Shown piece by piece: positions 1,381 to 39,764 of a DNA stretch of 64,000 bases. The DNA lies in the NCBI GenBank assembly GCA_032718475.1, contig JAUCBJ010008313.1, forward strand, positions 62,001 to 126,000. Direction: 5' to 3'. The stretch comes from Nemertoderma westbladi (taxonomy: Eukaryota > Animalia > Xenacoelomorpha). Positions within the stretch are counted from its first letter, which is position 1; every line of letters starts with the position of its first letter. The translations under genes and the position numbers were made by a program. Below the pieces are notes generated by a model. It was not told where the DNA came from. It made no database searches and worked only from the letters and a program-made list of their open reading frames with translations.

Positions 1381-1449
1381 AGAAAATGGGATTTAAGTCT
1401 ATAAAATATAAAAATCACAGTTTCTAAAATATAAAAATACTCTAAACGA

Positions 1450-2802
1450 TTAGTCCTTCTTACGTGAACAGCGTTTACGAAGTTTTTTGAGGCTAGCAAG
1501 AGTCCTTTTCTCTTTGGGGCGAGCCACTTTACTAGGAGGGCTATAACTCCTAGGTGAGGGGTGCAACACAATTGCATCGGAAGGTTTAGGGTTACGGTCG
1601 GTGTATCCACCGGTCGAGGTACCCGGTTGATCGATATCAACCTCAGTGGAACGAGGTCGAACAACCTTTAGAGCGCGTTTCAAGACAGCAGCTCTTACTG
1701 GTCCCTGACGGGTCATTTGCATGAGAGCGGTAGGCGGACCGTGAGTAGTAAGAAATTTCCTCGGTTTGATGGTTCTTTCTAACTTGCGTTCTCGGGCTCT
1801 ATATTCATAGGGTCGTCTATGAACTTCCTACAGTTCTGGATGCGAGTTGATGAACAAGTCACCATATTCTGGATCTTGACGGATGAAGTTGATCAAGTTA
1901 TAGGAATTTAGGTCATTGGGATTAATGTTCGTGAGGTACTTGCGAACAAATTTGGTCGAAATATTCTCGCCAACACGCTTCATTAGCTCGTAGCTAGGTG
2001 TGCGAGATTTTTGCTCAACGGAAGCAAATAGATACGGGTGAAACGCATAGACTCCTTCATAGGCACGTCCAGGGTAGTATCGATGACGTGACTCGCAATG
2101 GAGATCCGCGTTAGCTTCCCAGGCTCGAATGTAGCGCAGGGCAACCATTTCGTCTACGCTTTCCAGATCTCGGTTGAAAGGGCAATCAAAACTTGCGTGT
2201 CCTTTAAACTGGCAATGATGGCATTGAGTCATAAATTGAGGGCAGACTGCGAAGATGTGTAAGTTATTGAGTCTACAATACGCACAATAGATCTCCATGG
2301 TAGGTTGATCTTGAAAGTAGGAGCAGGGAACACTGGAGTCCACCAGGGTGAAGTGGTCTCGTGATGCGCATAATCGGCAACGTTTCCTAGAAACATAATT
2401 GGCATGCCGATAATCGTATGCGGTGAGACATTGTGGACCTTGATACCATTCCAGGACGTAGTCGTTGTCACTGCTCCTGGGCGCTGTGGGTTGAATCTCC
2501 TCGGACTCTAAGCAAATTGGTTCGTCTTCCAATTGCATAGCTGAGGTAGGTGTAGCTGTCTCCTCAAGCGAACCCACTGTTTGAACTTCCACGATAGAAT
2601 AACATTTGGGGATTCGGGGTCTTTGTATAACAGAGGAATGTAAGTTCTGTATACAAACGTTCTTGAAAATGGCGAACTACTCAGCAGCTGAGTCTCTTAG
2701 GCTGAGCTTAGTCAAAGCGTGGTCCTTGAACTGACTATCAACGTTACGGAACGGAGTCAGAAAGCGCCTAAAGCATTCGAATCGGATGAATTTATTGTAT
2801 TC
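1450..2802 (-). pseudogene. C-terminal part (zinc knuckles + basic tail) of the accessory ORF of element A
   Basis: ORFs 1828-2592 and 1450-1722 are in one frame, split by TAG where B has CAG. Motifs CRLCASRDH, YCAYCRLNNLHIFAVCP, CHHCQFKGHASFDC. Colinear with B 39765-41132. Confidence 0.85.
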
Positions 2803-3605
2803 CTAATATGTCTTACATTGATGGTAGAGAGCAGGGGAAGGCCTATGTCGTATTCAGAAATATTCAGAAATACGATCTCAGTAGGAGGATTCAACATTCG
2901 AAGACCATCTCCAAATGAATTTATCCCCAATCACTAAGGGAGGTGAACAACCAGATTTATGACACATAATGGTACCAGTTGTTCACAGACTATTAACGTG
3001 TCCTTTCAGTCCTTGTATCAATGGCCGTGGACTTGAGGAAATTATTGGTTGTTGATTATCTAATCAACAACAAGAGGGGTGGTAGGTGATACTATGAATA
3101 TCAACACAATGGTACATGGGCATGAGGTGCAGACACCAATATAAGCATCCAGATCAATAGTAAGGGATGGGGAGGTTTAGTAGGAGGCGATACAATCAAT
3201 ACCACGATACCACTATGATTGATCGATCATCTCCCAAAAGCTCCGAGCGCGTTGGGTAGAGAAGATGGGAAGAAGAGGGTTTTTTCTATCGACGTCTTGT
3301 ATCCTCGATAGCGATAGATAGAGGGAGAATAGTAGTAGGGAGGAGGAAGGATATGTGGGTAGTATCTATAAGATACCACAATGGACATGTTTTCCTTTTA
3401 CGTCATTACTCATTCTTACTCTTTAATTGTGACACTGATCACAATAATTGCAGGAAGAGGATGAAGTAAGAGGAAATTACAGCCTCCCGAAGGAGACCGC
3501 CCGTGAGCACACGCGCCCCGGGGAAAACTATTCACATTATGGACCCTGGACATTAACGTATGGTTTTTCTTCAGCTGGTTCTCCTCTACTTGTCTTTACA
3601 AACAT
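2803..3605. other. Foreign ~0.8-kb segment replacing the exonuclease portion of the A accessory ORF
   Basis: Similarity to B stops at ~2802 (B ~41132) and resumes at ~3606 (B ~43630). The intervening sequence has no counterpart that I could find in the window. Confidence 0.7.
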
Positions 3606-3994
3606 TCTTCCACATTCTCTCTTTCGAGTCGGTTTCGAATATAATTTTCGTGTTCGATTCTCAGTTTATCTTTCTGACTCCGCTGGGTATGATATTTAAA
3701 TAGGACCATTTCCCTTTCGGTGTCTACATCGTCCGTATCGTGTAAATCGATAGAATGACCAGTAGTTAAGAAGTCCATATATGTACCATTACGATGCGTA
3801 TAGCGAGCGGTGAATTTTCTATAGTCCAATTCACGCGTGAGCTGTTCCTTTGACATTGGCGGTTCGATATAACGGCCATCGTCTTCTGTAGTGGGTTGAC
3901 TAGCGTCGCCGCTTATTAAACTATCAACAAACGTTTACAATGGTAGGGTATATCGCTCCCTGATACCAAGATCATCTTCTATCAACTCAGTCAT
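3606..3994 (-). pseudogene. N-terminal remnant of the accessory ORF of element A
   Basis: MTELIEDDLG...EQLTRELDYRKFTARYTHRNGTYMDFLTTGH matches B ORF 42898-44019, with a premature stop. Confidence 0.85.
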
Positions 3995-5050
3995 AGCTGC
4001 TATATGAGTTTATCGATATTATAATTAATTATAATTTAGGCTAGCGGTCGTCGCTGCCTCCCCCTCAATGCCCCCGGACAGCGCAAGATCCTCAGCACTG
4101 ATGTACTGTTGTCACTGTGCCTCTCGCCAACGTAGTAGCTACACAACGACAACAATAACCAGCGCGAGTCACTCCACTGTCCGTCTCAAGGGCTTAGAAT
4201 TACTTCAGGTTCTTGCTACAGAGGCAGGGTAACTTTCACAACTGCGACTCGCTACTGTAAACACACTTTAGTAGTAACATTCACCTATAAATGCACAAAT
4301 TCCACACAACTGTCACAAATTGTATACATTCGGGCCATTTGTCCGTTAGTCAAGTGCCTTCCAGAATGCCACGTTATTATTATGTATCCCTGTATACTAG
4401 CAGTGTGCTATTTATTCCGTATGCTATTCAATGGGGCAAGCTTTCTATTGTTCTTTTAACTCGCTTCTAATTCTAGCGTGATTGTTGCTATGGTGACATT
4501 ATGGAAAGCTAGCAGTAGAATTAGGGTAATTCTCATGCATACAGATCTGGGATGCTATTTAATAGTAATTCTTTAATTGTCAATATTCCCCCTTATACAT
4601 GATTTTATGAAATTTATCGGCTATTGACTATATATTGGAGATTCTCGCACACTAATATACTTAATAGGGTGAATCTCCGCTCCCATGATCAATTAATTAA
4701 TGGAATTTTGGGAATGTTAAAAATTGTATAAAATGACAATTTATCAAATTCATGAGAGGATATGAATTTAAATTTATCCCCGTAAATTTTATTATTTAAT
4801 ATTAAAATAGACACAATTTTATTCCAGAACATGTCTGGGAACTAGAATCCTTAATTCTAGGAAATTAAGTAATTAAGTAATAAACACGAATATATTGTGC
4901 TAATCTACTGAATAATCGCTAAAATAATATTCTACTAAATAAAATTAAAGAAAACGACTATAATAATAAAATTACATAATAATACATACATAAATATAAA
5001 AATAATAAAAAATATAAAATAATGTAGTCACACACCCACTCCAGATGCTG

Positions 5051-8000
5051 TTACGTTGGGGAGTCCCTAGATGTTTGTTGGATTAGGGAGGTGGTCATGG
5101 GAAGAGTATCTTGCCTTCCATAGTCTCCGGATAGCTCTCTGTCTCTTTCCAGTAAACATAAACGACCAACTGGGCGATTGAGTTGTTGTGTTTCAAATAC
5201 AATTCCAGGTTTCTTAAAGTTACGTCGCATGACGACGAGTTCTACCGATCGGACTAAACCATCATAGGATATATGAGTCTCGATGATACGACCTGTCTGC
5301 CACCACTTATGTGGAAGATCTGATTCCACAATAAGGACCATGTCTCCGGCGCTGACGTTTTCTTGCTGCGCAAACCACTTGGTTCGAAGTTGTAGCATTG
5401 GCAAATAATGTTTTTCGAAATGGTCAGCGAAACGACGGGATAATAACTGCATGAGTTGCCAAGTTTGTCGGCAGTATTCGTCTCCGTCCGTGATTTCCGA
5501 TTGTGGGAGCATGGCTACAGGTTTCTTCAGTAGGAAATGCGCGGGTGTTAGCGCTTCTAGGGAGTCGGGACTCGATGAGACTGGCATAAGCGGTCTCTCA
5601 TTAAGATAGGCGGCAATTTCTTCCATTAACGTCCGCAAAAGTTCGTCGGTGAGATATGCGCGGCAAGGCACTATAAAGTGAAATGCGGTCTTCACGCTCC
5701 TTATTAATCTCTCCCAACTTCCTCCCCACCAAGGGGCGTCGGCGGTGTTGAAGGTCCAGCTAGATGCTGTTACCCTTAGCTGATCGTCCACCTGTCTTTG
5801 GTTCCAATCTTTAACGTAAGCTTTGATCTCATTATTGGCGCCAATGAAGTTCATTCCCTTATCAGATCTCATCGTGTTGGTAGTTCCAAAGCGAGCAATC
5901 TGTCGGCGTAAACTCAGTATGAAGCTGTTGGTAGATAGATCGTTCACCATATCTAGATGGATCGCTCTACAAGTCATACAGACAAAGATGACACACCATT
6001 GCTTGACTATAGTCCTAGCACGATATACTTCAATTGGGCCAAATAAATTCACACCAGTATTAGTAAAGGGTGGTTCATAGAAGCTTTCTCGTTCCCTAGG
6101 TAATTCTGCCTCTCGCTGTGTTAAAGGCCTACTGAATGCTTTCCTACAGGGTATACAGTTCCTAAGAACTTGGTTCAGAGCTCTACGGGGTTTATGGAAA
6201 TAATAGCAAGTTCGAATTTCGCTAAGAACTCGTTCTCTACCAGCATGGTAAAGTCTACTGTGAACATCTACAATCATCTTGATTTGTATTTCAAGATTTC
6301 TAATGAGTATGGGAAATTTAGTGTCAAAGGACAATGGAGCATTAGTTAATCTCCCTCCGACACGTATTAACCCATCTATCATTGTGCTAGAGAAACGATC
6401 CCTTAAGCGCATCAGTGGATTTCTCAATAACAGGAAATACTTATCGGAATCTTCATAGCATTGCAGGAGTCTCAGTATCTGCTTATTGGTTTCTTCATGC
6501 TCTTGATAACTGATCTTCTCCCTCAGAAACCTATCCGACACTTTATAAGCGGGAAGGTCTTTAACAGCATGGACCTGTTCGGATATCATCTGAGCGGTAT
6601 CATTAGCGATCTTCATCCTGGAATAGTGATGATGTAAGCATCTTTTGATATACACCACGGCCTTACAAAGCCGATTCCAGGAGCTATAATGATTTATCGC
6701 TCTCTGCAAGAGAGGTGAGAGTCCTTGCAAGACGTCTGGTGTTCCAGATTTCCAGTCTCTTTCTCTGATTTCTATAACAGATTTGTTTGTGGCGGGGGAG
6801 TTTAGATCCACAGCGTCGTCCCCGGAGATGTGTAGTACAGACAGATCTATCACGGGTTTAAATAACTTTGAATTACTCGTCCGGGTTTTAGGTTTGACTT
6901 TCTCTGCTCCCTTGGCTTGTCTAATCTCAGCCGTGGTGAGATGAGGAGGCCATTCATCCTCTTCTTTACTCAGGAAGTCGGGTCCACCTAAACAGTCTGG
7001 AGTATCTATCAGTTCTTGCGGGGTTGCTCCTCTAGAGGCGATGTCGGCTGGATTAATCGTCCCAGGGCAATGTCTCCATTGATCTACATTAGAGCGACTA
7101 AGTATAATGGCTACTCTGTTGTTGGTAACGAAGATGCTGAACTGACAGACTTCATTGGTTATATACTCCAAAACGAGTAAAGCATCAGTCCAATAGACAG
7201 TTTTCTCCAGTGGATAGTCGATCTGTTCTGTTACATTCCGGCCGATGGCTGTAGCGTATAGCGCCGCTTTTAACTCCGCTCGAGGAACTTTCAACTTGTT
7301 GTTTATCAATGCCTTAGAGGTAACCAAGGCGACTTTGATTCCATCCGGAGTTTCCACTCTCAGGTAGGCTACTATACCTATTCCCATATCGCTGGCGTCT
7401 CCAAACACATGGAGTTGATAGGAATACGTGGGGAGAACGTGACCAAAATATGAACGGGAAATCATAACGTTCTCGATGGATGGTAGAGAATCTTCCCATT
7501 TCATCCACTTCTTTAGTAGTTCTCCCTTAAGTGGATCATCCCACGAGTGGTTTTCAAGCCACATTTGTTGCACTAAGCTCCGAGCAACCAATATAACTGG
7601 ACTAATAAATCCCAATGGATCGAAATAAGTGCTCAGGATACTTAGACAAATCCGTTTAGTTCTAACTGGATTATCTCGCTGTTTTAACTGGAAAAACAAG
7701 ATATCTCTCTCCGTGTCCCATTTTAAACCAAGTGTTTTGGTTTCCGGAAGATCGTCCTTGATGAGGTCCAGATCTTTAACACAGCCTTGTCTTAATCCAT
7801 CTGGATGTCCAATAAACTTTAACGCCATTAACTTGGGAGGTCCTTCCAGGCACTCGATGAGGAATCTAAGTTTCTCTCCGTTGGATAGTACAGAGTTCTG
7901 TATGTTATCTTTATAATATTCATTAAAAGGTAACCATTTCATCTCATCTCCATTAAACTTGACGACATCTCCCACCTTTACCGCTTGATGGGCTTCGGTT

Positions 8001-8645
8001 CTAGCCATTTGACATGTAAAACTTTCTTGAGCCATCGTATTATTTAATATCGAGTTATCAATATATAAATTTCTCGGATTATGATCAGATCTGTATGGGA
8101 TATCATTATCAACAGGTTTATATACCCTTAATAGGGTTTACTATAGGAGTTTCTACTTCACTAGCAGTATATATGCGTGTAGGCTCCACACCTTGCGCAT
8201 GAAATACTTCAGACCTAACAGGTTGACACATTGTTACAGGGGGTGGTGGTATAACCATTTGTATATTTACTAATTTATCGCGCTCTAAGGCGATACTCTG
8301 TTCCACTTCTTGCAATTCTAACCTACTCTCTCTCACTGTTCCCTTTAACTGCTGAACAGTCCCTTCCAATTCGCGGACCTGCTGTGAAGACCGCCGTTTA
8401 TGGTCTTCCAGCTGCCTGAGCAGGCGGTTCATCCCCCGCCATCTCTCGTCCACCCACTCAACCGCGGAAGCGGGAGCCGCCAACATGGTAGCCGGGTGAC
8501 GCGTGGGGACGACGGGAGACAAGTCATTTATGTCTTGCTCGGCGTCCAGGACCATGAATGATTCCAGAGCTTGTCTACTGGGCACAGGTAGTTTTGTACT
8601 GTGCAAAGGGAATTTAGAGTTAGGTTCTAGAAGTACAGGGGTCTC
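5051..8645 (-). pseudogene. Element A gag(part)-RNase H-integrase; protease and RT removed by an in-frame deletion
   Basis: The 994-aa ORF has LHVFGDAS (RNase H), the H..H..C..C zinc finger, the DD35E region and the Pao C-terminal RPVGRLCLLE. At ~7780 gag sequence (B ~51180) is joined to post-RT sequence (B ~48335). Confidence 0.9.
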
Positions 8646-10011
8646 TGTTGCCGTTATTCCTACACCAGGGGGAAAAACGCCGATGCTGGAGACGTGACTT
8701 AACAGACCACCGAGCCCCGGCCAGTCACCGGATATTGATTGTGGGGAGGGAATATTTCTAAGATGCAAGTTTGCGGTTGAGAAAAGCTGCATTAGTTGGA
8801 TATACTCTTTAATGTAACTTCCTATAGTTGAAAACCTGATTAAGAATAATTTTGGGCTTCCCCAAATCAATATACACCAAATATTCACAATAATTATACA
8901 CGATAATATAAATCCCTACGGTATATTATTTAATAACCCACTGTTCGCTCAGAATTTTAGCCTACCTAATGTTCCCCAGATTTTCCCTCAGTCCCAGTCT
9001 TAGTGCCGTAGTGTCGGTGTCGGTCGACCCTGTCGCGTGTCCGTTCCACCCCTCACGAACCCCGAAGGGAACGATCATCGAGAACCAGCCCGGCTTGGCT
9101 AAGGGTCGGTCCAGTCGGTAGACTCTGTCGCGTATCCGTACCACCCCTCTCGAACCCCGAAGGGTTCGGTCATCGAGAACCAGCACGGCTTGGCTAAGAG
9201 TCTGTCGTGTCGGTGGACCCGTTCGCGTGTCCGTTCCACCCCTCACGAACCCCGAAGGGTTCGATCATCGAGAACCAGAACGGCTTGGCTAAGGGGTCTG
9301 TCGTCGGTTCCCGTCGCAAATCCCAGTCAAGCAGTCAGCGTTCCGAGTTCTTTTCAGGCTCGTAGTAGCTGCAGTTGACCCGAGACTGCTAAGGGCAGTC
9401 CTTGTCAAACCAGTCCTGTGGCCAGCCCTTTCGCATGTCCATCCCACCCCTCACGAACCCCGAAGGGATCGGTCATCGAGAACCAGTACGGCTTAGGTCA
9501 GGGGGCAGTCTTAAGTTGGCCACCTGTTCGCGTGTCCGCTCCACCCCTCACGAACCCCGGGGTTCGATCATCGAGAACCAGAACGGCTTGGCTACTAAGG
9601 GGCCGTCGGTGCCCGTCGCAAATCCCTGACACAAGCAGTCAGCGTTCCGAGTTCTTTTCAGTCTCGTAGTAGCTGCCGTTGGCCAGGGACCGCTAAGGGC
9701 AGTCCTTGTCCTTTAGGCCTGGCGCATTACCAAATCCACCCCTACAGGCAGCAGGAAGTTGGCCAGGGCCTAATAGTACTCAGGCTAACCTGAATACTGC
9801 TTGCATTTTCCATCCCCCCTGGCCCTTATAACTATGAAATTATTCCCGTACCCTGTAAGTTGCCCCAAAGTTCGCCCATAAATCGCCCCCAGTTTATTGA
9901 ATGTGCCCAAAACCCATGGTCCCGCACCCAGTAGTAATATCAGAATAATCAATTTTAATAAAATACAAAAATATTCAACTCGCGTTATGGAAAGTTGAAA
10001 TACCGCGAACA
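8646..10011 (-). repeat. 3' LTR of element D (1366 bp) with internal structured repeat array
   Basis: Near-identical to 21137-22239 except for a 263-bp indel in the repeat array. Confidence 0.95.
9025..9710 (-). repeat. Tandem array in D LTR: five ~85-95-bp hairpin units plus two ~95-bp units of a second type
   Basis: Core CCACCCCTCACGAACCCCGAAGGGTTCGATCATCGAGAACCAG recurs at ~9046, 9141, 9236, 9446 and 9541. Second unit type at ~9312-9405 and ~9614-9710. Confidence 0.92.
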
Positions 10012-10020
10012 GTCCCCCCC
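10012..10020 (-). promoter_or_regulatory. Polypurine tract of element D
   Basis: GGGGGGGAC on the minus strand immediately before the 3' LTR. Confidence 0.75.
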
Positions 10021-10176
10021 AATGACCTTCGTGAAGTCTGTCGGTCGATTGAGTTTGCGTAGGTCATTCCCAATATAAAAAATCCCAAATTTAATATTGC
10101 ATAGTTTTTAATTAATTTGGCCTAGAGTTTGTATAAAATAAATGTTCGATAAATGTTCCTGGAATATCCCAATCCA

Positions 10177-11076
10177 CTATTTCTTTTTCTGATACGCCTT
10201 CCGTCTCTTCGCCCGTCGACTCTCATCGATCGCTATGGCTGGTAGAGGAGCGTCAACATCCATCGTGAGTAACGCTTCGGCTTGTCTCCTGGCGGCTCTT
10301 CCTTTCGAAGGCAACGGGATCATGTCGGTTCGTCTTTCCAACTCGGAGTTGCGTGCCTCTAGGAACCATTCTCCGTCACCGAACTCCTCTTTATACGAAT
10401 ATAATCGTCTAATAACTTCGAATGGACCGAATAATCCGGCGCTCAGTAGCAGATCCACGTAATGGAAGGGTAGCGAGGCCGACGTGTGGAGGCGTTCCGG
10501 GAAGGAGAAATATCCGCACGCCATCTCCTGCGCGATATTCCGAGCGTTTCTCCGAAACTTGGTCTTTAAATGGCTGTTTGCGTATGTCTCAAACATGACC
10601 ATATTGCCCATAGCGGTAACGTCTTTGGTTGGACATTTAATATAGCAGCGGGGACTAGCGGAATGTCCACGGAAACCGCACGTGGTGCAGAGGTTATAAA
10701 GGATCGGACAGACCGAAACGTCGTGGCCCGATATCGCGCAGTATGGGCAATAGAGTATCCCGAGGAGCTGGAGGCAAGAATCGGTAACCCGATTCCTTCT
10801 GCTGCGTGGGCACTGCTCCGAACCGCAGTCGCCGCATACCTCCAACTGCATCTCTCGACCGGGGAATATCGGAATCGGGACGCCGGCGTAGTATTCGAGA
10901 CGTCGGTCGCTCTTCGGAATATTCTCGGTGGTCGGTAGCCCGCGGAATGCTGGGCTCTTGCGTAGTATGTTCTCGCTTCGATAACCCTCTTTGTGTCCCG
11001 CTGGTCTCAACTCGGATGACCGTTTCTGGCGGTGGATCCATTCAGTTTGCTCGGCGTACCAACGGGTTAGTCGCAT
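10177..11076 (-). CDS. Accessory ORF of D, C-terminal part: three Cys/His zinc knuckles + conserved tail
   Basis: CGDCGSEQC, YCPYCAISGHDVSVCP, CTTCGFRGHSASPRC, then FETYANSH and a basic C-terminus. Overlaps the upstream ORF by 35 nt in another frame. Confidence 0.8.
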   Translation of the reverse strand: MRLTRWYAEQTEWIHRQKRSSELRPAGHKEGYRSENILRKSPAFRGLPTTENIPKSDRRLEYYAGVPIPIFPGREMQLEVCGDCGSEQCPRSRRNRVTDSCLQLLGILYCPYCAISGHDVSVCPILYNLCTTCGFRGHSASPRCYIKCPTKDVTAMGNMVMFETYANSHLKTKFRRNARNIAQEMACGYFSFPERLHTSASLPFHYVDLLLSAGLFGPFEVIRRLYSYKEEFGDGEWFLEARNSELERRTDMIPLPSKGRAARRQAEALLTMDVDAPLPAIAIDESRRAKRRKAYQKKK

Positions 11077-12766
11077 AGGGTCCTGAGGTAGTAGCTACCG
11101 CTGGTCGGCGAAGAGGTGCCGGGGTTTTCGACGGAGGGATACCGAGGAGATCGTCGGGTGTCGGCGCATCGCTGGGGCCTTCCTCGACCAGTATCGCTGA
11201 GCGGGTCCGTTGTTGGCTGGTACTCGGAATCTCCGACGACCAATCTTCGCCGCCCGGGAAAGGATACGGGGATAACCGTTGGCATATGTCGCCGAAGTCG
11301 CTCAATGCGGCTGTAGTGGCTACCTCTCTCGCGGGGCTACCGGAGCCGCGTGGGGTGTAGACGCCTGCTCTCTTCATCGGTTCGGCCGAGGCAACCCGTT
11401 TGGCGGCCGGTCCGTACGCGGCCTCCGGCTCGAGTTGTCGCTTCGGGGTGGAGAGTAGAACACCCTCGTTTAGCCATATCTCTTCCCCTTCCGAGGAGAT
11501 CAGAGGCTCCTCCGCACCGAGAAGTTCGGTAATCGTAGGGATGTCGTAAGGTCCGCTCTCGTCCCAGGAATCGATAACGGCGGGCGTTTTCGATTCTCCC
11601 GGTGTAATGTTCTCGACCGCTTTAAACGCATGGTTTATAACCTCGTTCCAGTCGTAGTCGACGAAGGAAAGGGGGACCGCCGTAATAAGGTTATCGAGAG
11701 TTTTACAGATAAACTTAGCGACGGTGTAGCATTCCATAACGACGTAAACGTAGTTCCGTCGATCGGGATTCTCCCATCTTTGGTGTATCGTCCACTTCCG
11801 ATCAACGTCCTTCCATCGACCCTCTCGCTCGCTCTTTATCTCTAATCCCGGGTATCCGCCGTATATTTTATTATAGTCTCGGTATTTCTGGGGTTTGAAG
11901 TCGATACCGCCGTTTAGCACAGCGAGGTAGCCGATCCCGGATTTCGTCGGTCTCACTTCTTGGAATCCTCGCATGAATTCGGCGAATCTTAACCAGGCTA
12001 GCAGCGTTTCAGTGTCGATGCAATGGCTAAGTGCGTTGAGGTCGTTTCGTCGGTTTCTTCCTGCGGGAGCGTTCGCGTAGTCGTTCCGGACGTCCGCCTT
12101 GATATCCGACCCGATTTTAATAACGTCGAAGTCGAAGAGGATCTTTTGGATTTCCGGAGGCAGCAACCAGATCGCTCCGGCTGCCTGCACTTCCTGTCTG
12201 GGTGTCGGGAATATTCGGCACACCAGTACCAAACCGTCCAGGGTTCCGAGGACGACGACTAAGGATCGACCGTATTCTTTCGCCCCGTACTTTTCTTGGT
12301 AGTCGTCTCGGTTTTGGATAATCGATACGCGTTCCTCTCGAAGCGTCGCCGTACACTCCGACAGGTTTCCCCAGTGGGCGAGGTACGTACTCTTGTCGTC
12401 GACGAAACTTTGACATCTCGCCAACGTAATCGCTTTCGAGGTGGGCGTCGCGTTTCCCTCGTTATCGTAGATCAAACATCGGGATCTGTAGACGCTCTGC
12501 CGGAACGTTTCCCAAAACGACGAATCGTCCCCTCCGGTTGCCTTTGCGTTCCGAGTTCTTTTCAGTCTCGTACTAGCATCGGCTAACCGGAGGGCTCGTA
12601 GATTCTTAGAATCCGGTCCCTCTCGCCCGGTGAATTTAATGACTCGCACGTTCTCATTTAGCAGGGTGCTCCAATTTGTATCAAAGTCAGGGGATCCGGG
12701 TTGCGAATATTCCAGTAGATCTATCGTGTTACGTAATTCGCCGATAATTTGGCGATTTGGGTCCAT
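11042..12766 (-). CDS. Accessory ORF of D, N-terminal part: DEDDy-type 3'-5' exonuclease-like domain
   Basis: LIYDNEG (ExoI DxE), LPPEIQKILFDFDVIKIGSDIKADV (ExoII), CIDTETL, SGIGYLA and YVVMECY (ExoIII-like). Motif order matches WRN/EXD2/Mut-7 exonucleases. Confidence 0.75.
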   Translation of the reverse strand: MDPNRQIIGELRNTIDLLEYSQPGSPDFDTNWSTLLNENVRVIKFTGREGPDSKNLRALRLADASTRLKRTRNAKATGGDDSSFWETFRQSVYRSRCLIYDNEGNATPTSKAITLARCQSFVDDKSTYLAHWGNLSECTATLREERVSIIQNRDDYQEKYGAKEYGRSLVVVLGTLDGLVLVCRIFPTPRQEVQAAGAIWLLPPEIQKILFDFDVIKIGSDIKADVRNDYANAPAGRNRRNDLNALSHCIDTETLLAWLRFAEFMRGFQEVRPTKSGIGYLAVLNGGIDFKPQKYRDYNKIYGGYPGLEIKSEREGRWKDVDRKWTIHQRWENPDRRNYVYVVMECYTVAKFICKTLDNLITAVPLSFVDYDWNEVINHAFKAVENITPGESKTPAVIDSWDESGPYDIPTITELLGAEEPLISSEGEEIWLNEGVLLSTPKRQLEPEAAYGPAAKRVASAEPMKRAGVYTPRGSGSPAREVATTAALSDFGDICQRLSPYPFPGGEDWSSEIPSTSQQRTRSAILVEEGPSDAPTPDDLLGIPPSKTPAPLRRPAVATTSGPYATNPLVRRAN

Positions 12767-13331
12767 ATTTACGATTATATCCGTTACAAATTAGTTCAGT
12801 TAATTATAAGTCCAGAAAGTCTGAAACTATAGCGATAGCAGAATAATTCAGTTTTTTATTTAATTCAGTTTATTAAATAACATTGCTATATAGGCATCTA
12901 TCATCTTATTGCTAATACATTCAGCATTTACAGTTACTATAGCTATACATAATATCCAACCAGTTTTTTATGACTTTTTTGTCCTTTTTTTTTTTTTCCA
13001 ATTCTTTTCTTTGACCTCTTTTATACCTTTTTTTTGTCTTTTTTCATTTCATTTCATTATTATTTCATCTCATTTCATTTATTTCCACATATATTTCAAC
13101 ACATTTAGTTCCACCATTTATTTCACATTTATTTATTTCCACATCATCATTGGGTTTATAGCCCCCCGGCTATCATCATTGGTTATAAGCGCAGCACCAT
13201 GGTGCGCATCATTTCATTTTCATCAGCATACGCGTCATCATTCAGGTTTATAGCAGAGTTGTCTGATCCTTTTCATCACTTCCAACTATATTCAATCATT
13301 TTCTTTGGTTAATCTTTGTCGTGGAAGGGGT

Positions 13332-13742
13332 GTTACGCGGCAATCTGGGATCTACAGCTGGACTCGTTACACCGCCTACGCCCCAAACTGCGCACGTAAC
13401 GGACAATGAAGACGCTAGGAGTGAAGTCACGTGGATGCACCAGGGACCCACCAGAATAACACTCCCAACAACATAAAGCTCAGTCGACGAAGTCATGTGG
13501 GATGGGGTTACGCAACATTCTGGGATCTACAGCTGGACTCGTTACACCGCCTACGCCCCAAAATCCACGTAACGGTCCCACCAGAATAACGCGACTGAGA
13601 AACATAAAACCCTCTATCGTCGAAGTCATGTGGATGCACCATGGACCCACCAGAATAACGGGATAGAGGGGGTGTTGCGCGGCAATCCGGGATCTACAGC
13701 TGGACTCGTTACACCGCCTACGCCCCGAACTGCGCACGCAAC
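13332..13742 (-). repeat. Three ~70-bp structured repeats between pol and the accessory ORF of D
   Basis: Core GGGATCTACAGCTGGACTCGTTACACCGCCTACGCCCC at ~13347, 13522 and 13689, with a second motif (..CCCACCAGAATAAC) between units. Confidence 0.9.
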
Positions 13743-14160
13743 GGACAACATAACATACTGCAATGAATACAATGAATTCCACTTCAAATCTTTTCCATTT
13801 CCAATAATCCAATATCGTCGGTCCCGATGACCAAAATCAGGGTAAACTAAACATAAACGACCCTGCGTCAGCCGAAACATCTGCAGGGTGATGCTGGACT
13901 CCACATAACACACGAGGAAACACAAATACCATTGCGTGGTTACAGTTGGTTTAAAGGGGGTCCATAATTCGTTGTCGATAAATCACAGTTTAAAAAGAGT
14001 TTGTCAACATGATGAGAAGGGTTTAAACGCATTTATAATTGTCACCAATGTCCACAGTAGGATCCGTAGGGAACTTATCACCTCTTGTAGAATCACCACT
14101 GTCATTGCCTTCAAGAAGGCACAGCTTCTGGATGGGGCGTTGGTAGTGGCCCGCTTTCGT

Positions 14161-17100
14161 TCATATCGTCACAGTCCTCGCAAGTCCGTCTTTGCTTGGG
14201 TGTATGGTCACGACCCGCGCCACAGGCCAGTGAACGCGGTCTTTGAGATCTTCTCTAACTAGTACCATGTCGCCAACTGCGACGTTCCGGTGAGTGTTGT
14301 TCCATTTCCTCCTGGTCCGGAGGGTTATGAGATATTCCTGGGCCCAAATCCTCCACCAATGCGCTGCCAACGCTTGGGCCTTTTTCCAGTTTGTATGTTT
14401 CGCGATCTCGTTGGGATCCGGGAACATGGTTTCCGGGAGGAGGTGGGTTTTGGGTCTCCCCAGTAAGTGGTTAGGAGTGAGGGGTTCCAGTTCTGTGGGG
14501 TCGTCGCGGATAGGAACAATGGGTCGGTTGTTCAGGGTAGCCGTGATCTCGCAGGATGTTGTGCGGAGGGTGTCATGGGTTACCCGGGTATCGCCTAGAG
14601 CGACGCGCATGGACCGTTTCACTAGGTCGATCAGTTTCTCCCATACCCCGCTCGTATGGGGTGCTAAGGGGGTCTGGAAGTGCCACTGTATCTGGTGTTC
14701 CTTCCAGACTTGGGATGCGGTGTTATTGGTAAACCATCCCTCGATCGCCTCTCTAAGTTCTCTTTCTCCTCCCACAAAGTTTGTACCATTATCGGAATAC
14801 ATGTGGCGACATGTTCCGTTGTTCGCCACGAACCGACGCAGAGCGTTGATGAATGCGTGTTGTGTCAAATTTACCACGATATCTAGGTAAATTGCCCTAG
14901 ATCTTAGGCAGGTGAAGATGGCTCCCCAGCATTTGATGTTGGATCGTCGTTCAATAACCGTGAACGGTCCGAAACAGTCCACTCCGGTGACGTAGAATGG
15001 TGGGGAATCCGCTTCTAGACGGGTGGCTGGTAAGTCGGCCATCTTTTGGGTGATTGGTGGCGCTAGGTAACGTCTGCAGGTGAAGCAACGTTTCAACACT
15101 TTCCGGATCAGTGGCTGGATGTGGGTGATCCAATATCTTTGTCTTATATTAGCTATAATCCAATTCTGTCCTGCGTGGTGGTTGTCCTCGTGACATTGTA
15201 GAATTAATAGCTTAGCTAGTGTCGACGTTCCGGGCAGAAGCGCCGGGTATTTAATCTCATATTCGACCGGGGCGTTTGCCATCCGGGTATTCAGTCGGAT
15301 CAGTCCGTCCTCTCCCATCATTGGTCTCAGTTGGTAGACTGGGCTGTCCGGTTTCAACGTTTTACCCGCACTAAGTTGTTCCCATTCATCGGGGAAACTT
15401 TCTTTCTGGACATATCTAACAATACACTTCTCCGCAATAATGAGTTCTTGTATATTCCGTTGAACTATCGGTTTGTTGTTCTTCCACCGTAGGAAGTTGC
15501 GAAGGGTTATAACGTGGTGGACGAGCCGTCTCATGGATGAAGTTCGCTCGATCAACCGATGTAGAGACGTCGCTAGTTGAGTGATCGTCGCGACGTTATA
15601 GTGCCTGCCCGAGTCCTTTGCAGGCTCAGTCAGACAACTATAAATTTCCACCGCGTTGCTTCGATGGATTTTACGGATTTCTTTATCGTCCTCGGAGTAT
15701 TTTCCGCTATCGAGCTCGGGGTCGAATCGGGTACTCCATGTTAATTGTGGCTGCCGTAGGAATTCCGGGCCTGTAAGCCAGAGTCTACTTTTACCGAGTT
15801 GTTTTGGGGTGGCGCCTCGGCTAGATAAGTCCGCTGGGTTTTCCTTCCCGTTCACGTGATGCCACTGTTCTCGGCCGGTACATTGTTTAATCTCCGTGGC
15901 TCGGTTTGCAACAAACGTGGTGTGACGCCGTGATGGAGAGTGGAGATAATAGAGGACTATACTCGAATCTACCCAGAAGTGTTGAGATTCTATGGGGATC
16001 CGTAGATTCCGCATGGCCATGCGATTCTGTCTTACTGCCCAAACTGCAGCTTGTAGCTCGAGTCTCGGAATCGTTGCTACGAATTCCCCGGATACTGTTT
16101 TTGCTTTGGAAAATAAGAAGCTTGTATCGCCGTTTCCATCATTACTTAGTCTCCGTAAGAAGGTGACTACGCCGATTCCGGTATTCGAAGCATCCGAAAA
16201 GGTGTGGAGCTGGAAGATATCGGTGGGCAATTTATCGAGGAAGAATGGTCTAGGTATCCGCATAAGATGTAAGTGTTCGAGCTGCTCCGTCCATTTTCTC
16301 CATTTGACGCTGAGGTATGGGGGGAGCTCTTCGTCCCATCCCAGTCCTTCTATCCACATTTCCTTAATTAGGTTCATTCCGGCCAAGGTTACTGGAGATA
16401 TGAAATTTAGTGGGTCGAAGATGGCGCTTTTTATCGACAAACATCCCCTTTTTGTCATAGGCTTGGGTATGGGTTTATACTTGAAGATGAATTCGTCTGA
16501 TTCTATGTCCCATTCGATCCCAAGTACACGATGTTCCACATCCTCCGAATACATTTTGTTATCTTCCAGCCGGATGTCCTCCGGAAACTTTTCCATAAGT
16601 GTTTTGTCATGGGATCTGAACTTTACGAGCGGAAACCCTCCTTTCTTTAGACATTCCACCATCCCCATTGCTAGCCGATATGCCTCATCCACGTTATCCG
16701 CGCCGGCGCATCCGTCGTCCACGTAGAAGCATCGTTGAATGGTTTCTATGACGGTTGGAGGGAACTCGTTTTCGCACATAGTTGCCGTCCTCTTTAGCAT
16801 GTCACTGCATGCTACCGGCGAGTCCTTAGCGCTGAAGATCCTGACGACCATACGCATTACGTCTACGTCCCATATCGTGAGTTGGCTAATCTCCTGTTGA
16901 GTAAGCGTTTTATCCGTCCATAGGATACGTAGACAGTCCGAGTCTCTTGGTAACGTACGAACTTGATGAAACATGGCCTTGATGTCACAGGTGAATGCTA
17001 CCCGGTTTTCCCTGAACCTGATCAATACGCTGATGAGTGTGCTATATATGTTGGGTCCTGTGTAAAGTTGACTGTTTAGGGATTCGCCCTGGTACATAGC

Positions 17101-20100
17101 GGCAGCGTCATTTACCACTCGGATTTTCCCACCTTTGCGGGCTTCTACTACATAGTGGGTTGGGAGATAATATGTTCTTTTACCACCTTGCAGTTCATTC
17201 CGTGGTACCATTTCTGCTAATCCATCATCGAGATATCCTTGGATTACGGTATTATATTTCTCCTTTATTTCAGGTTGGTCATTCAGCCGGCGTAGAATCC
17301 CTTTAAGTCGTTTAAGTGCCATGCTGGCGTTGTTTGCCATTGGTTTGTTTGGATCCTTCCATAACATAGGTGAACACCAATGTCCGTCTTTAAACGTGGC
17401 CTGGTCGAGAACGTCCATACAATATTGGTCCTCTTCGGATGGGTTTTCGTCCTTTTCCGCGAACTCCTGGGTCTCCAAATTAAAATATTTCGTCATCTCT
17501 CGTTGGGTTTTCTCGGATTCCAGAAACAAATCCTCGTCAAGATCCGAAGCTGAGCAATAACCCACGGAGGTTACATTCTCTTTAATCTGACATTTGGGAA
17601 GGTAGGTATAGGTGTCCATAGTTTCCTCCTTAATGCCGCAGAGTGTCCATCCCATTATTGTTCGTTCAGCATAAAATCCGTCATCCTGGTTTATAGATCG
17701 GGCGATATCTCCGGTGGGGATGTGTAGTTCCGGTGTATCAAGTCCGATCAGTAGGGTGATACGGTTTACGTCCAACTGCGGACACCTCAGGTCTACATCG
17801 TCCCGGTCCAATTGTATGAGGGGGGCGTACTCGGCTGATTGTCGGAACCGCACCCGGAGGTCTGTGTGTACCAAGGCGTTCTTTATAGTTAACTTAGCCG
17901 TTTCGTAGCCCTTCATCACTCCTTCCATCTGGAGTTGCACCTCCCCGGACTCTACCTCTCTGTTATCGGTGATGGTTTGTATGGGCCGTTTACAAGGCTC
18001 ATATTCTAGTCCGAGTTGCTCGAGAAAGTCCCGGTCGATGATGGTTCCGTCAGACCCGTTATCGAGGAACGCGAGTGTCGTTAAAGATTTACCGACTCCT
18101 TGGATCCTTACTGGGATTACCTTTGCGAAAACCATGTAGCGGCGATTTATAAGATTAATCGTGGCCGAAATATTTGTTACTTGTGGTGTATCGGTGGAGA
18201 TTTTAAATGGGTTGGTTTCTCTCCGTTGGGTTGTCCGGGTTCCTTTGAAGACATGGTTTGTTTCTCCTCTTCGCCTGGCTTCGATCCGAAAGGGGAGGGT
18301 AGTAAAATCGAAGTTCGCGGGGATGTGGAGGAGCGTGTGATGGCGTTGGTCGTTACAGACAGCACAGCACGACCTTTGGTCGCAATCCCGAACGTAGTGA
18401 CCTGTTCCAAGACACCGGAAGCATCCTCGGTGTTTCATTATCGCCTCGAAGCGTGGGACGAGGTCGGCGAACTGAAACTTTCTGCAGAATTCCACTTTAT
18501 GTTTCTCCCCACAGAAGAGACAGAGCAGGGAATTTGTGATGCCTTCCCTTTCGGGTGCCCAATTCGCGAGATAACATGCCCATTCCTCGGCGGATGTCGG
18601 TTCCTCGTAGTCTTCGTCGTCGGAATCCTCAGCCATGGTGATGGCCATCGTACTCACCGGTGGGGGGCGGAATCTCGGTTTCGGAGGGGTTATCTTACCC
18701 CTGGAGTTGCTCTCTATTCCGTCCAACTTTGCGAGACTTTGTTTGGAAAACATCGAGTCATTCATGGCTTCGGAGATATCGTCCAGGAATGCCGACATCT
18801 CAAGGAAGCTAGGATCTCGATCTGGATGTCTGCGCCGGAGGTCTACACATTTATAAGCCCACTTACTTTGTAGCCATCCGGGGAACTTCCGGGCGATCTG
18901 TCGGAGGTTTAGGATGTTGTTCACCTGGTCCTCCTTATTCAAGGGTTTCAGAGTATAGTAGGCATCCTTCATAGAGTCGGAGAATTCCTGTATGTTCTGT
19001 GGGTCTCCTAGTGATCCCGCGTCCTGTATCAGTCTCTCTAGAGTTTTATTAATTATAGTTCCGGTATTTCCGTATCTTTTATCCAGAGTTTTCCATGCGT
19101 CATAGTATGCCTCATGAGAACCTCCTTCAAAACATGCAATAATTCTGCGTGGTTTGTCACCCAGGTATTGCGATAAATATACCAATTTCTGTGCGTCGGC
19201 TATGTCCGTTGATCCGATCTGCGCAAAGAACCGTTTCTTAAATCTGAGGTAATCGACGGGATCCCCTTCGAAGGTGCGAATCTCCATCTTAGGCATGGCA
19301 AGGCGGTTCTCCAACGCCCGGATGATGCTGACGTCCTCTGAACTGGAGTGACTCGGAGGGTTATAGTTATTGGCACTCACTCCCATACTTGATGGATCAA
19401 TAATAGGTGGAGTTTTAATAATGACGCGGCTACGAGTTTGTGGTGTCGATGTAAACGGGTTATTTGATCGGGGAGTGGCGTCCCGTTCCGAGTCCTTTTC
19501 AGGCTCGTACTTGGGTACACTCGCTGTCGTGGTGTTGGATGGGAAATAAGGTTCCTCATTCTTTAGCGTAGCTGGTGGGGGATGGAACACCGGGGCTTGT
19601 GCCGATAGCGTAGACTGTTTGGTGGGCGGGATCTCGGGTTTCGGAGGCTTCGCCGCTGTTGGTGTAAATGACTTTTCTAACTCCGGTACCGGAATTGGTT
19701 CATATTCCTGATCTATATCCCTTTCCCAGTCCTCGTAGAGTTGAATATCTCGTTCTATAAGTGCGGCTTCGTATTCTGCGAGTTTTGCAATATCCGCATT
19801 CTTTTTGTGGATGAGAATTGCTTGGGCCTCGGCGTGTTGTTTACGCATTTCTGCTTCCCATTTACGTTGTTCGATCTCCCGTTCGGCCTCTCGTCCGCGT
19901 TGTTCGGCTTCCTGTTTGCGTTGTTCGGCCTCGTGTTTGCGCTGTTCGGCCTGTCGTTCGTCCTCGTGTTTGCGGTGTTCGTCCTCTCGCCTGCGTTGTT
20001 CGGCTTCCTGTTCACGTTGTTCGGCCTGTCGTTCGGCCGCTTGTTCGGCCTCTCGACTTTGTGTTTCTGCAGCTAATACATCTTGCTCGGCTTGCAGTTG

Positions 20101-20697
20101 AATATACTCATCTTCCATCCGAGCTTTGAGGGCTAATGCCTTCCGCTCTCGCAGTTGGTCTCGGAGTGGCGGCGCCCCTTGAGAACTGCGCGCTGAGCCG
20201 GATATCTCGCTCCTAGCGCTGGAGTGCTGATTTCTGGTGGACCCCATTCTCTTGCGATGTACTCCTGTCCTGATGCTGGAGGATCGTACTGATTCCGCGT
20301 CTGTTCTTTCAGCCCTCTTGTAATACTGTTCCTCATAGCCTCTCACAAGGCTGAGGGTCCTCCGGTGTTGTTTGCGGAACCCATCTAGATGTACAACGTG
20401 TTCTTCCATCTTGGGGTAGTTTTCCAGATCGGTGGGGGGAACGAGCTCTTGGTACGCCTGTATCATTCTTTCATACCGCTGTAGGATATTTCGGATACTT
20501 TGAAGCTGAGTTTGTACCTCATTGAGGGGGGTTTTGACTCCCTTGAGTTGTTTCTCCATCCGTTGATACGCTCGGGTTACTCCGCCTTTAAGAGCCCCTA
20601 ACCGACGGGTCATGTTCTTGACGTTTGGTACCTCGTCGGCTTCCGAGTCTGTGTGGTGATCCATCTCGTCGGTATCGGATACGTTATTTGTGGTCAT
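14161..20697 (-). CDS. Gag-Pol polyprotein of Bel/Pao element D (2178 aa)
   Basis: Gag with three CCHC knuckles, protease AFLDNGSDGT, RT FYVDDG, RNase H FSDAS, integrase HHCC + DDE. The terminal TGA looks premature: the frame continues TKAGHYQRPIQKLCLLE to ~14023. Confidence 0.96.
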   Translation of the reverse strand: MTTNNVSDTDEMDHHTDSEADEVPNVKNMTRRLGALKGGVTRAYQRMEKQLKGVKTPLNEVQTQLQSIRNILQRYERMIQAYQELVPPTDLENYPKMEEHVVHLDGFRKQHRRTLSLVRGYEEQYYKRAERTDAESVRSSSIRTGVHRKRMGSTRNQHSSARSEISGSARSSQGAPPLRDQLRERKALALKARMEDEYIQLQAEQDVLAAETQSREAEQAAERQAEQREQEAEQRRREDEHRKHEDERQAEQRKHEAEQRKQEAEQRGREAEREIEQRKWEAEMRKQHAEAQAILIHKKNADIAKLAEYEAALIERDIQLYEDWERDIDQEYEPIPVPELEKSFTPTAAKPPKPEIPPTKQSTLSAQAPVFHPPPATLKNEEPYFPSNTTTASVPKYEPEKDSERDATPRSNNPFTSTPQTRSRVIIKTPPIIDPSSMGVSANNYNPPSHSSSEDVSIIRALENRLAMPKMEIRTFEGDPVDYLRFKKRFFAQIGSTDIADAQKLVYLSQYLGDKPRRIIACFEGGSHEAYYDAWKTLDKRYGNTGTIINKTLERLIQDAGSLGDPQNIQEFSDSMKDAYYTLKPLNKEDQVNNILNLRQIARKFPGWLQSKWAYKCVDLRRRHPDRDPSFLEMSAFLDDISEAMNDSMFSKQSLAKLDGIESNSRGKITPPKPRFRPPPVSTMAITMAEDSDDEDYEEPTSAEEWACYLANWAPEREGITNSLLCLFCGEKHKVEFCRKFQFADLVPRFEAIMKHRGCFRCLGTGHYVRDCDQRSCCAVCNDQRHHTLLHIPANFDFTTLPFRIEARRRGETNHVFKGTRTTQRRETNPFKISTDTPQVTNISATINLINRRYMVFAKVIPVRIQGVGKSLTTLAFLDNGSDGTIIDRDFLEQLGLEYEPCKRPIQTITDNREVESGEVQLQMEGVMKGYETAKLTIKNALVHTDLRVRFRQSAEYAPLIQLDRDDVDLRCPQLDVNRITLLIGLDTPELHIPTGDIARSINQDDGFYAERTIMGWTLCGIKEETMDTYTYLPKCQIKENVTSVGYCSASDLDEDLFLESEKTQREMTKYFNLETQEFAEKDENPSEEDQYCMDVLDQATFKDGHWCSPMLWKDPNKPMANNASMALKRLKGILRRLNDQPEIKEKYNTVIQGYLDDGLAEMVPRNELQGGKRTYYLPTHYVVEARKGGKIRVVNDAAAMYQGESLNSQLYTGPNIYSTLISVLIRFRENRVAFTCDIKAMFHQVRTLPRDSDCLRILWTDKTLTQQEISQLTIWDVDVMRMVVRIFSAKDSPVACSDMLKRTATMCENEFPPTVIETIQRCFYVDDGCAGADNVDEAYRLAMGMVECLKKGGFPLVKFRSHDKTLMEKFPEDIRLEDNKMYSEDVEHRVLGIEWDIESDEFIFKYKPIPKPMTKRGCLSIKSAIFDPLNFISPVTLAGMNLIKEMWIEGLGWDEELPPYLSVKWRKWTEQLEHLHLMRIPRPFFLDKLPTDIFQLHTFSDASNTGIGVVTFLRRLSNDGNGDTSFLFSKAKTVSGEFVATIPRLELQAAVWAVRQNRMAMRNLRIPIESQHFWVDSSIVLYYLHSPSRRHTTFVANRATEIKQCTGREQWHHVNGKENPADLSSRGATPKQLGKSRLWLTGPEFLRQPQLTWSTRFDPELDSGKYSEDDKEIRKIHRSNAVEIYSCLTEPAKDSGRHYNVATITQLATSLHRLIERTSSMRRLVHHVITLRNFLRWKNNKPIVQRNIQELIIAEKCIVRYVQKESFPDEWEQLSAGKTLKPDSPVYQLRPMMGEDGLIRLNTRMANAPVEYEIKYPALLPGTSTLAKLLILQCHEDNHHAGQNWIIANIRQRYWITHIQPLIRKVLKRCFTCRRYLAPPITQKMADLPATRLEADSPPFYVTGVDCFGPFTVIERRSNIKCWGAIFTCLRSRAIYLDIVVNLTQHAFINALRRFVANNGTCRHMYSDNGTNFVGGERELREAIEGWFTNNTASQVWKEHQIQWHFQTPLAPHTSGVWEKLIDLVKRSMRVALGDTRVTHDTLRTTSCEITATLNNRPIVPIRDDPTELEPLTPNHLLGRPKTHLLPETMFPDPNEIAKHTNWKKAQALAAHWWRIWAQEYLITLRTRRKWNNTHRNVAVGDMVLVREDLKDRVHWPVARVVTIHPSKDGLARTVTI

Positions 20698-20885
20698 TGT
20701 AACGCCTCGTCGATGGCGAGATACGCGATGTCGTAAAACAGTTCCTCGTAGGTATTGTACTCAGCTTGGACCACCCGAACAGTAATCCTGAATCGTCCAA
20801 CGTTTGTTCCTTGTACCTCAACTTCGACGTGCCAGATTCCTGGCTCAACTTGAATTATATCAATGGGTGTGATCGATACTTCCAT
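20694..20885 (-). CDS. 63-aa upstream ORF overlapping the gag start codon (ATGA)
   Basis: ATG start, protein-like composition. Its TGA overlaps the gag ATG by 4 nt (CAATGACC). Confidence 0.45.
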   Translation of the reverse strand: MEVSITPIDIIQVEPGIWHVEVEVQGTNVGRFRITVRVVQAEYNTYEELFYDIAYLAIDEALQ

Positions 20886-21136
20886 TCCCTGTTAACAACT
20901 CTCCCGAATTGTGATCTGCCGACTACGAGTTGGTTAGATCGAGTTTGTTGTTTAATTAAACCACGACTTTGTCTCAACTCAAATACCAGAGTTTCCTCGT
21001 AGTGGGTGCTGGCAAGCACGTAGAGAGTTTTTGAAGAGTATTGAAGGATTCTCAACTTCCACCAGTTGAAGTTGACCGTAATTATCCTTAATTTTGACAC
21101 CGTGTCAAAATTAACCGCATTAATTATTCTTAATTT

Positions 21137-22239
21137 TGTTGCCGTTATTCCTACACCAGGGGGAAAAACGCCGATGCTGGAGACGTGACTTAACAGACCA
21201 CCGAGCCCCGGCCAGTCACCGGATATTGATTGTGGGGAGGGAATATTTCTAAGATGCAAGTTTGCGGTTGAGAAAAGCTGCATTAGTTGGATATACTCTT
21301 TAATGTAACTTCCTATAGTTGAAAACCTGATTAAGAATAATTTTGGGCTTCCCCAAATCAATATACACCAAATATTCACAATAATTATACACGATAATAT
21401 AAATCCCTACGGTATATTATTTAATAACCCACTGTTCGCTCAGAATTTTAGCCTACCTAATGTTCCCCAGATTTTCCCTCAGTCCCAGTCTTAGTGCCGT
21501 AGTGTCGGTGTCGGTCGACCCTGTCGCGTGTCCATTCCACGTCGCAAATCCCAGTCAAGCAGTCAGCGTTCCGAGTTCTTTTCAGGCTCGTAGTAGCTGC
21601 AGTTGACCCGAGACCGCTAAGGGCAGTCCTTGTCAAACCAGTCCTGTGGCCAGCCCTTTCGCATGTCCGTCCCACCCCTCACGAACCCCGAAGGGATCGG
21701 TCATCGAGAACCAGTACGGCTTAGGTCAGGGGGCAGTCTTAAGTTGGCCACCTGTTCGCGTGTCCGCTCCACCCCTCACGAACCCCGGGGTTCGATCATC
21801 GAGAACCAGAACGGCTTGGCTACTAAGGGGCCGTTGGTGCCCGTCGCAAATCTCTGACACAAGCAGTCAGCGTTCCGAGTTCTTTTCAGTCTCGTAGTAG
21901 CTGCCGTTGGCCAGGGACCGCTAAGGGCAGTCCTTGTCCGTTAGGCCTGGCGCATTACCAAATCCACCCCTACAGGCAGCAGGAAGTTGGCCAGGGCCTA
22001 ATAGTACTCAGGCTAACCTGAATACTGCTTGCATTTTCCATCCCCCCTGGCCCTTATAACTATGAAATTATTCCCGTACCCTGTAAGTTGCCCCAAAGTT
22101 CGCCCTTAAATCGCCCCCAGTTTATTGAATGTGCCCAAAACCCATGGTCCCGCACCCAGTAGTAATATCAGAATAATCAATTTTAATAAAATACAAAAAT
22201 ATTCAACTCGCGTTATGGAAAGTTGAAATACCGCGAACA
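21137..22239 (-). repeat. 5' LTR of element D (1103 bp)
   Basis: Matches 8646-10011. Deletion at ~21540 removes most of repeat units 1-3. Confidence 0.95.
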
Positions 22240-34706: not shown

Positions 34707-34708
34707 TA

Positions 34709-39686: not shown

Positions 39687-39764
39687 CCGCTCCCAGAAAA
39701 TGGGATTTAAGTCTATAAAATATAACAAATCACAGTTTCTAAAATATAAAAATACTCTAAACAG

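Follow-up and report, generated by a model that had tools for sequence, protein, structure and literature searches.

A third gene with an exonuclease-like domain and zinc knuckles in three Bel/Pao retrotransposon families of Nemertoderma westbladi

What can a long terminal repeat (LTR) retrotransposon gain from a third gene that does not look like an envelope gene? This question is raised by a stretch of 64,000 nt from Nemertoderma westbladi (assembly GCA_032718475.1, contig JAUCBJ010008313.1, positions 62,001-126,000 of the forward strand), here called the window, to which all coordinates refer. The window is made up of minus-strand LTR retrotransposons nested in one another. Four of these are Bel/Pao elements of three families; A and B form one family, and D and C are the other two. 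Identity among A/B, C and D is 37-42% in reverse transcriptase (RT) and 30-41% in integrase, and A, B and C give 37-41% when aligned to the RT or integrase of D. In all three families, a homologous sense-strand gene is found between pol and the polypurine tract, in the env position. It is referred to below as open reading frame 3 (ORF3).

ORF3 is a regular and strongly selected part of the three families. Its N-terminal part probably has a DEDDy-type exonuclease fold, as judged from sequence comparison, and its C-terminal part carries zinc knuckles. The reading preferred here, to which we assign a probability of roughly 0.4, is that ORF3 encodes an RNA-gripping DEDDy exoribonuclease that would counter host silencing or decay. 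To our knowledge, few animal retrotransposons encode their own weapon against small-RNA defence.

A selected third gene in three families

The initial annotation of this DNA had named a series of exonuclease motifs in D, C and A/B, and these are present where it placed them, on the minus strand (Table 1). It had also seen no evident nucleotide similarity between the families, and indeed no match of at least 80 bases at E ≤ 1e-8 joins the third genes of D, C and A/B. The proteins are homologous by tblastn. Within the window, the exonuclease part of D matches B at E 1.3e-6, and its knuckle part matches C at E 1.3e-10 and A at E 1.3e-5. The exonuclease parts of the three families are approximately 25% alike, and the domain formed by the knuckles and the FE motif is the most conserved part between D and C. 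The knuckles and the [FW]E..A tail are found in D, C, B and A. The claim that each element bears the full motif series holds for ExoI and ExoII in D, B and C and fails for A, in which most of the exonuclease has been lost.

No copy in the window is intact as a single clean ORF. The gene of D consists of two overlapping frames split within the linker, that of C changes frame at approximately 37800, inside the nuclease-like part, and that of B has three in-frame stops and one frame change. The exonuclease and the knuckles share one frame in B and lie in two frames in D and C. Where the frame of D breaks, an insertion or deletion sets the window apart from contigs of three DNA runs. This difference and the single frame of B lead us to infer that exonuclease and knuckles are natively fused in one protein and that the break in D is private to the window copy. 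The exonuclease half of D is an unbroken natural frame. An acceptor-like TTTCAG lies approximately 60 bases before the ATG of D ORF3 and would fit a spliced subgenomic mRNA for this gene. In one run guessed to be RNA, 15 of 30 bins of D ORF3 were thinly covered, which carries no information on expression.

Comparison of A with B gives a ratio of nonsynonymous to synonymous substitution rates (dN/dS) of 0.063 across 446 codons in the C-terminal part of ORF3, which is not neutral, and of 0.157 across 657 codons of pol. The knuckle segment gives 0.024, a rough figure with dS saturated. A lacks the catalytic core, so the comparison of A with B excludes that part, which weakens its bearing on a nuclease. 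Read data were therefore used for the D family, for which the three DNA runs yielded many variant contigs covering the gene in all bins. Forty of 327 variant sites were listed, 10 outside the gene were dropped, and 30 were scored. Third codon positions account for 24 of the 30 listed sites (p 2e-7), and for 19 of 23 in the exonuclease frame. The gene is therefore regarded as regular and selected, and the old, selected accessory module that had been proposed for the env position is borne out by homology, dN/dS and third-position bias.

The A/B family has an additional N-terminal extension of approximately 600 codons (42199-44019 in B and 3605-3994 in A, minus strand), in which some Cys/His residues form a small cluster and one stretch is acidic and coil-like. 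It has no Pfam or NCBIfam match, and its dN/dS of 0.093 over 129 codons indicates purifying selection. Between the same two elements, dS is approximately 2.5 in the knuckle segment (40110-40760 versus 1831-2481), far above that of pol (0.36) and of the rest of ORF3 (0.4-0.56). This suggests that the segment was swapped with a more distant relative.

The Belpaoviridae profile of the international virus taxonomy committee (ICTV) gives only gag, pol and env genes, a length of 4.2-10 kb, and an 18-nt tRNA-Arg/Gly primer site (PMC8742986). The present elements differ in a third gene that is not env, in showing no tRNA-Arg/Gly primer site, and in the length of D, which is 13.6 kb. ORF3 looks accessory rather than core, because it is absent from this description and because a fused PF01612 domain occurs in none of the 120 nearest gag-pol proteins listed. 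It appears to be useful to the element, because it has been kept in families that are only distantly alike in RT and integrase. In RT trees, B, D, and C together with a related fragment, E, stand apart on long branches among elements of corals, echinoderms, fish and others. A single clade of B, C and D is not rejected with 27 rows that include 23 of the 120 relatives (p-AU, from the approximately unbiased test, 0.19), so that one ancient gain and exchange between lineages are indistinguishable.

Could the gene be a functionless host gene that was captured, or else an env or a second gag that has diverged? All copies in the window are defective, and three Cys-His boxes are likewise found in the gag of Bel/Pao elements (PMC554778), both of which would agree with such an origin. 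However, purifying selection on ORF3 exceeds that on pol, which largely refutes the passenger version. Features of env were sought, and ORF3 has neither a signal-like N-terminus nor a transmembrane segment common to the families. The sole hydrophobic 19-mer above 1.3 is the strand pair of D, and its counterparts in B and C are not hydrophobic. By these sequence features, the third gene does not qualify as env. A gag of its own is present in each element, and the ORF3 knuckles match each other at E 1e-10 to 1e-5 and the gag boxes at E 0.01 or worse; on this comparison, the knuckles were not copied from the gag boxes. Origins of this kind are thus very improbable.

The exonuclease-like domain and the knuckles

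The assignment of the N-terminal part was based on a reference profile of 17 RNase D and PolA exonuclease domains, four of which were taken from a set of 80 loci. The alignment of D, B and C scored 28.4 against this profile in hhalign, a value that was reached by none of 150 block shuffles (maximum 23.8), and the reversed alignment scored 14.8. C alone was matched over 111 collinear columns (p 3e-4) that bring ExoI, the strand pair, ExoII and DTQ into register, and B alone was matched at p 0.003. The order and spacing of these four elements are those of WRN, EXD, Mut-7 and RNase D proteins (PF01612). The nearest Atlas cluster is a WRN-like exonuclease with PF01612 on 38% of its members; its score of 0.76 is below 0.8 and makes it a lead only. 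The DEDDy superfamily is favoured because two independent methods, profile alignment and Atlas, name it.

Several results speak against this assignment. D alone was not matched by the profile in hhalign (p 0.42), and the hhalign probabilities are only 11-39%. With HMMER, the reference profile puts B and then C at the top of 310 window frames, at E values that are not significant (0.76 and 2), and does not list D. The exonuclease part has no Pfam match at E ≤ 1 and no NCBIfam or PDB sequence match. Two AlphaFold models reached a predicted local distance difference test (pLDDT) value of 34-35, which is too low to judge the fold, so that the lack of a match in a Foldseek search from such a model carries no weight. 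Compared to the PF01612 proteins, the domain falls below Pfam detection, has long insertions in D and B, and carries Glu at the putative ExoIII. The DEDDy assignment of the initial annotation thus stands as likely on weak profile evidence, and not on a fold or a Pfam match. No relatives of the exonuclease were found in protein searches with D alone (7995 candidates) or with the alignment A1 (7997 candidates), which were word-based and length-limited, nor in metagenome and viral contig scans or phage records.

Blank library searches, low hhalign probabilities and an Atlas score below 0.8 would also be expected if the N-terminal part were not DEDD at all and the motif series were a chance likeness in a real RNA-binding protein of another kind. 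Yet the residues common to three families of such low identity match ExoI, ExoII and DTQ in order and spacing. The shuffles and the agreement of the two methods also argue against chance, which we consider improbable.

The acidic residues bear on catalysis. The set is D-E-D-E in D, D-K-D-E in B, and D-E-D in C, where the fourth is not clear. ExoI D-x-E and the ExoII Asp are present in D and C; B keeps both Asp residues and has Lys for the ExoI Glu. A putative ExoIII, Y-x3-E with Glu instead of Asp, is found in D and B, where the two copies are mutually aligned; it lies beyond the coverage of the profile alignment. There is no clear ExoIII in C, and a cross-frame remnant seen by eye was not significant in tblastn. 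All of these departures weigh against an active nuclease. They would suit an RNA adaptor that has a nuclease fold but hardly any or no catalytic activity, and that would direct element RNA to granules, the germline or the assembly of particles. Egalitarian is an example of a nuclease-fold RNA adaptor. EXD1 and Maelstrom are inactive DEDD derivatives, according to the accessible sections of PMC5408684. An adaptor is also favoured by the long insertions, specific to each family, that interrupt the domain in D and B, and by the conservation of the knuckle-FE domain between D and C. On the other hand, D is acidic at all four positions and C at the three that are readable, and B and C are decayed copies, so that their departures may be private to them. 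We regard an adaptor as rather unlikely, and as the nearest competitor of an active exoribonuclease.

The knuckles are CX2CX4-5HX4-9C units. Three per element had been reported, and this is correct for C and B; D has two canonical knuckles and one variant, the first, in which the His is missing. The top PDB matches of the knuckle alignment are Air2 (E 6e-5) and then 7C42, which is TbRND (E 0.008). Atlas leads for the knuckles are CCHC proteins, with Air2-like clusters among them. The resemblance to Air2/ZCCHC7 is generic among CCHC arrays, and Air2 itself has five knuckles and no nuclease domain.

Known systems and possible function

The initial annotation knew of no earlier description of such a gene, and this part has to be withdrawn. 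Juno and Vesta of bdelloid rotifers are Gypsy-type elements. According to the accessible sections of Rodriguez et al. 2017 (PMC5408684), Juno1/2 and Vesta2/5 are LTR elements with an RNase D-like DEDDy ORF3 that is shared with Athena/Terminon elements. Functions in 3'-end processing and silencing are guessed at there, as they were in the initial annotation, and none was tested. The rotifer genes are mentioned again in the accessible sections of three reviews (PMC6338049, PMC5718144, PMC6431247). Like them, the present ORF3 is separate, lies behind pol in the env position, is RNase D-like with an altered DEDDy acidic motif, and has no transmembrane or coiled-coil env features. It differs in the acidic motif, which is D-E-D-E here and DEED there when compared by description, and in the fusion with three CCHC knuckles and the FE domain, where Vesta2/5 have only a Cys-His-Cys motif. 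The host element here is Bel/Pao, and the words "BEL" and "Pao" do not occur in the accessible sections of PMC5408684.

Literature searches, with Repbase, Dfam, GyDB, Malik et al. 2000 and supplements outside their scope, returned no report of a Bel/Pao exonuclease or triple-knuckle fusion, and PMC3118150, PMC9094657 and PMC12440569 do not contain the word "exonuclease". DEDDy ORF3s in LTR elements are thus already known; the Bel/Pao host and the TbRND-like fusion with three CCHC knuckles seem to be undescribed. A selected gene of this type in three deep Bel/Pao lineages indicates that the DEDDy-ORF3 arrangement is not confined to rotifers.

TbRND (7C42) provides the closest layout. It consists of an RNase D domain and four CCHC fingers, which bind RNA U-tails and feed the nuclease, according to the accessible sections of PMC7797062. 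ORF3 shares with it the order of a DEDD exonuclease, a linker, and then a CCHC finger array in place of HRDC. In contrast to ORF3, TbRND is a cellular, mitochondrial protein with four fingers and a shown preference for U-tails. The exonuclease alignments did not match TbRND among PDB sequences at E ≤ 10, which makes this a likeness of layout and not a shown kinship. The fused knuckles supply a concrete model with predictions on substrate.

In the preferred reading, ORF3 encodes a likely 3'-5' exoribonuclease of the DEDDy type, with three zinc knuckles that would hold on to single-stranded RNA. RNA is the probable substrate because the knuckles are of the Air2 and TbRND kind. By analogy to TbRND, the nuclease would shorten the 3' end of knuckle-held RNA, and the basic C-terminus would strengthen RNA binding or help the protein enter the nucleus. 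Expression would use a separate, possibly spliced subgenomic mRNA. The protein would serve the element by opposing RNA silencing or decay in the host, and candidate targets are small silencing RNAs or the precursors of these, or else the 3' tails by which element RNA is marked for decay. A role in host conflict fits best because most of the family can do without the gene, and yet it has been retained in deep lineages. A DEDDh exonuclease used against host RNA sensing is found in the arenavirus NP protein, and Air2 and the terminal uridylases are members of RNA-decay pathways. Two points count against such a role. Small RNAs appear no better indicated as a target than the RNA or complementary DNA (cDNA) of the element itself, and the type of ORF3 is not clearly linked to copy number in rotifers, as far as the accessible sections of PMC5408684 go.

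Element RNA and cDNA would be the targets if the protein were a helper of reverse transcription. Such a helper would trim a self-made primer, the genomic RNA or the 3' end of the cDNA, or would proofread for RT. By eye and without host tRNAs, a TGG-type tRNA primer site was seen behind the 5' LTR in none of three elements (A, B and D), a point in favour of such a helper. In D, 13 bases (21122-21134, minus strand) two positions behind the 5' LTR pair perfectly with 21330-21342. The pairing target lies 206 bases before the LTR end, and 1 of 2000 shuffles reached this pairing. The geometry is that of Tf1-type self-priming, in which a cut primer could need trimming, and structured RNAs are trimmed by RNase D enzymes according to the accessible sections of PMC5408684. 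However, A and B have no convincing direct or spliced LTR complement, as the best score was reached by 7/200 and 197/200 shuffles, and a gene separate from pol is not assured of packaging. A role in reverse transcription is considered unlikely.

A splice-made primer in A or B was not supported by the shuffle test. These two elements share a small hairpin, TATTGC...GCAATA, directly behind the 5' LTR (25805-25847 and 55885-55916, minus strand).

In a broader and doubtful scenario, a shared pool of exonuclease-knuckle genes would have been tapped by several retrotransposon superfamilies. The Bel/Pao version would then strip silencing RNAs or decay tails, against control by PIWI-interacting RNAs (piRNAs) or uridylation, or would mature the self-made primer of tRNA-independent Bel/Pao elements.

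Element structure and neighbouring features

The gag-pol of D contains Peptidase_A17, DUF1759, DUF5641 and Integrase_H2C2 above Pfam cut-offs. Its closest database relatives are Bel/Pao polyproteins at approximately 40% identity, the named ones including corals, echinoderms, fish and a mollusc, and PF05380 is borne by 120 of the 120 relatives listed. The LTRs, 5-bp target site duplications (TSDs), polypurine tract, and the set and order of gag-pol domains correspond to the Belpaoviridae pattern. Paired LTRs, a 5-bp TSD and a tract rich in purines are seen in both D and B, and A has paired LTRs, with no TSD found. The 5' LTR of C lies beyond the window edge, and its third gene has been split from its pol by the insertion of B. 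The LTR pairs differ by 7 mismatches in 1103 aligned bases in D, 4 in 1161 aligned bases in B, and 19 in 1140 bases in A. Because these mismatches are few, the insertions are regarded as young.

Table 1. Coordinates of the Bel/Pao elements, their third genes and motifs in the window
Feature	Coordinates	Strand	Description
Element A, whole	233..27016	-	LTRs 233-1372 and 25848-27016; contains D
A ORF3	1450..3994	-	start of N-terminal extension and knuckle half; 2803-3605 replaced
Element D	8646..22239	-	inserted in A; TSD GTCTC 8641-8645 and 22240-22244
D 3' LTR	8646..10011	-	LTR pairing
D polypurine tract	~10012-10022	-	G-rich; directly upstream of 3' LTR
D ORF3, second frame	10177..11094	-	Cys/His knuckles (three, His missing from the first), then FE..A domain and basic tail
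D ORF3, first frame	11042..12766	-	likely DEDDy exonuclease and low-complexity linker
D ExoI IYDNEG	12472-12455	-
D ExoII KIGSDIKAD	12118-12092	-
D putative ExoIII YVVME	11746-11732	-
D other motifs	IDT 12019, GIGYL 11941	-
D gag-pol	14161..20760	-	open over 2199 codons; in-frame stop near end
D 5' LTR	21137..22239	-	LTR pairing and flanking TSD
C ORF3	36403..38473	-	half with ExoI and ExoII at 38473-37796; then a frame change, an acidic linker, the three CCHC knuckles and a basic tail
C motifs	ILDDEG 38131, KVGSAIRED 37924, LDM 37861	-
Element B, whole	38509..57077	-	inserted in C; LTRs 38509-39686 and 55917-57077; TSD GTGGT
B ORF3	39765..44019	-	~600-codon N-terminal extension, exonuclease-like domain, three knuckles, basic tail
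B motifs	TYDNKG 41873, KIGSAVYGD 41588, VDT 41516, SIGHL 41417	-
C gag-pol, broken	58406..63748	-	pol end at 58406

A 32-base piece of the D ORF3 coding sequence (12546-12577) recurs twice in each LTR of D, at 9338-9369 and 9642-9673 in the 3' LTR and also in the 5' LTR, with a weak longer echo at the protein level. It may stem from capture of a fragment of the gene, or be a regulatory site common to both. The LTRs of D also contain 95-base repeats, the copy number of which is unequal between the two. Tandem or near-tandem repeats are present between pol and ORF3 in C (57100-58284) and D (13321-13748).

An AT-rich frame of 185 codons (34706-35263, plus strand) adjoins an AT microsatellite and has no Pfam match. 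Two fragments on the minus strand, 26860-27904 and 33822-34673, resemble by eye RT and C-terminal regions that we take to be those of non-LTR retrotransposons; the latter has no Pfam match. The gag-pol fragment E of the C family (29521-32847, plus strand) ends before the integrase, and its RT is 87% identical to that of C.

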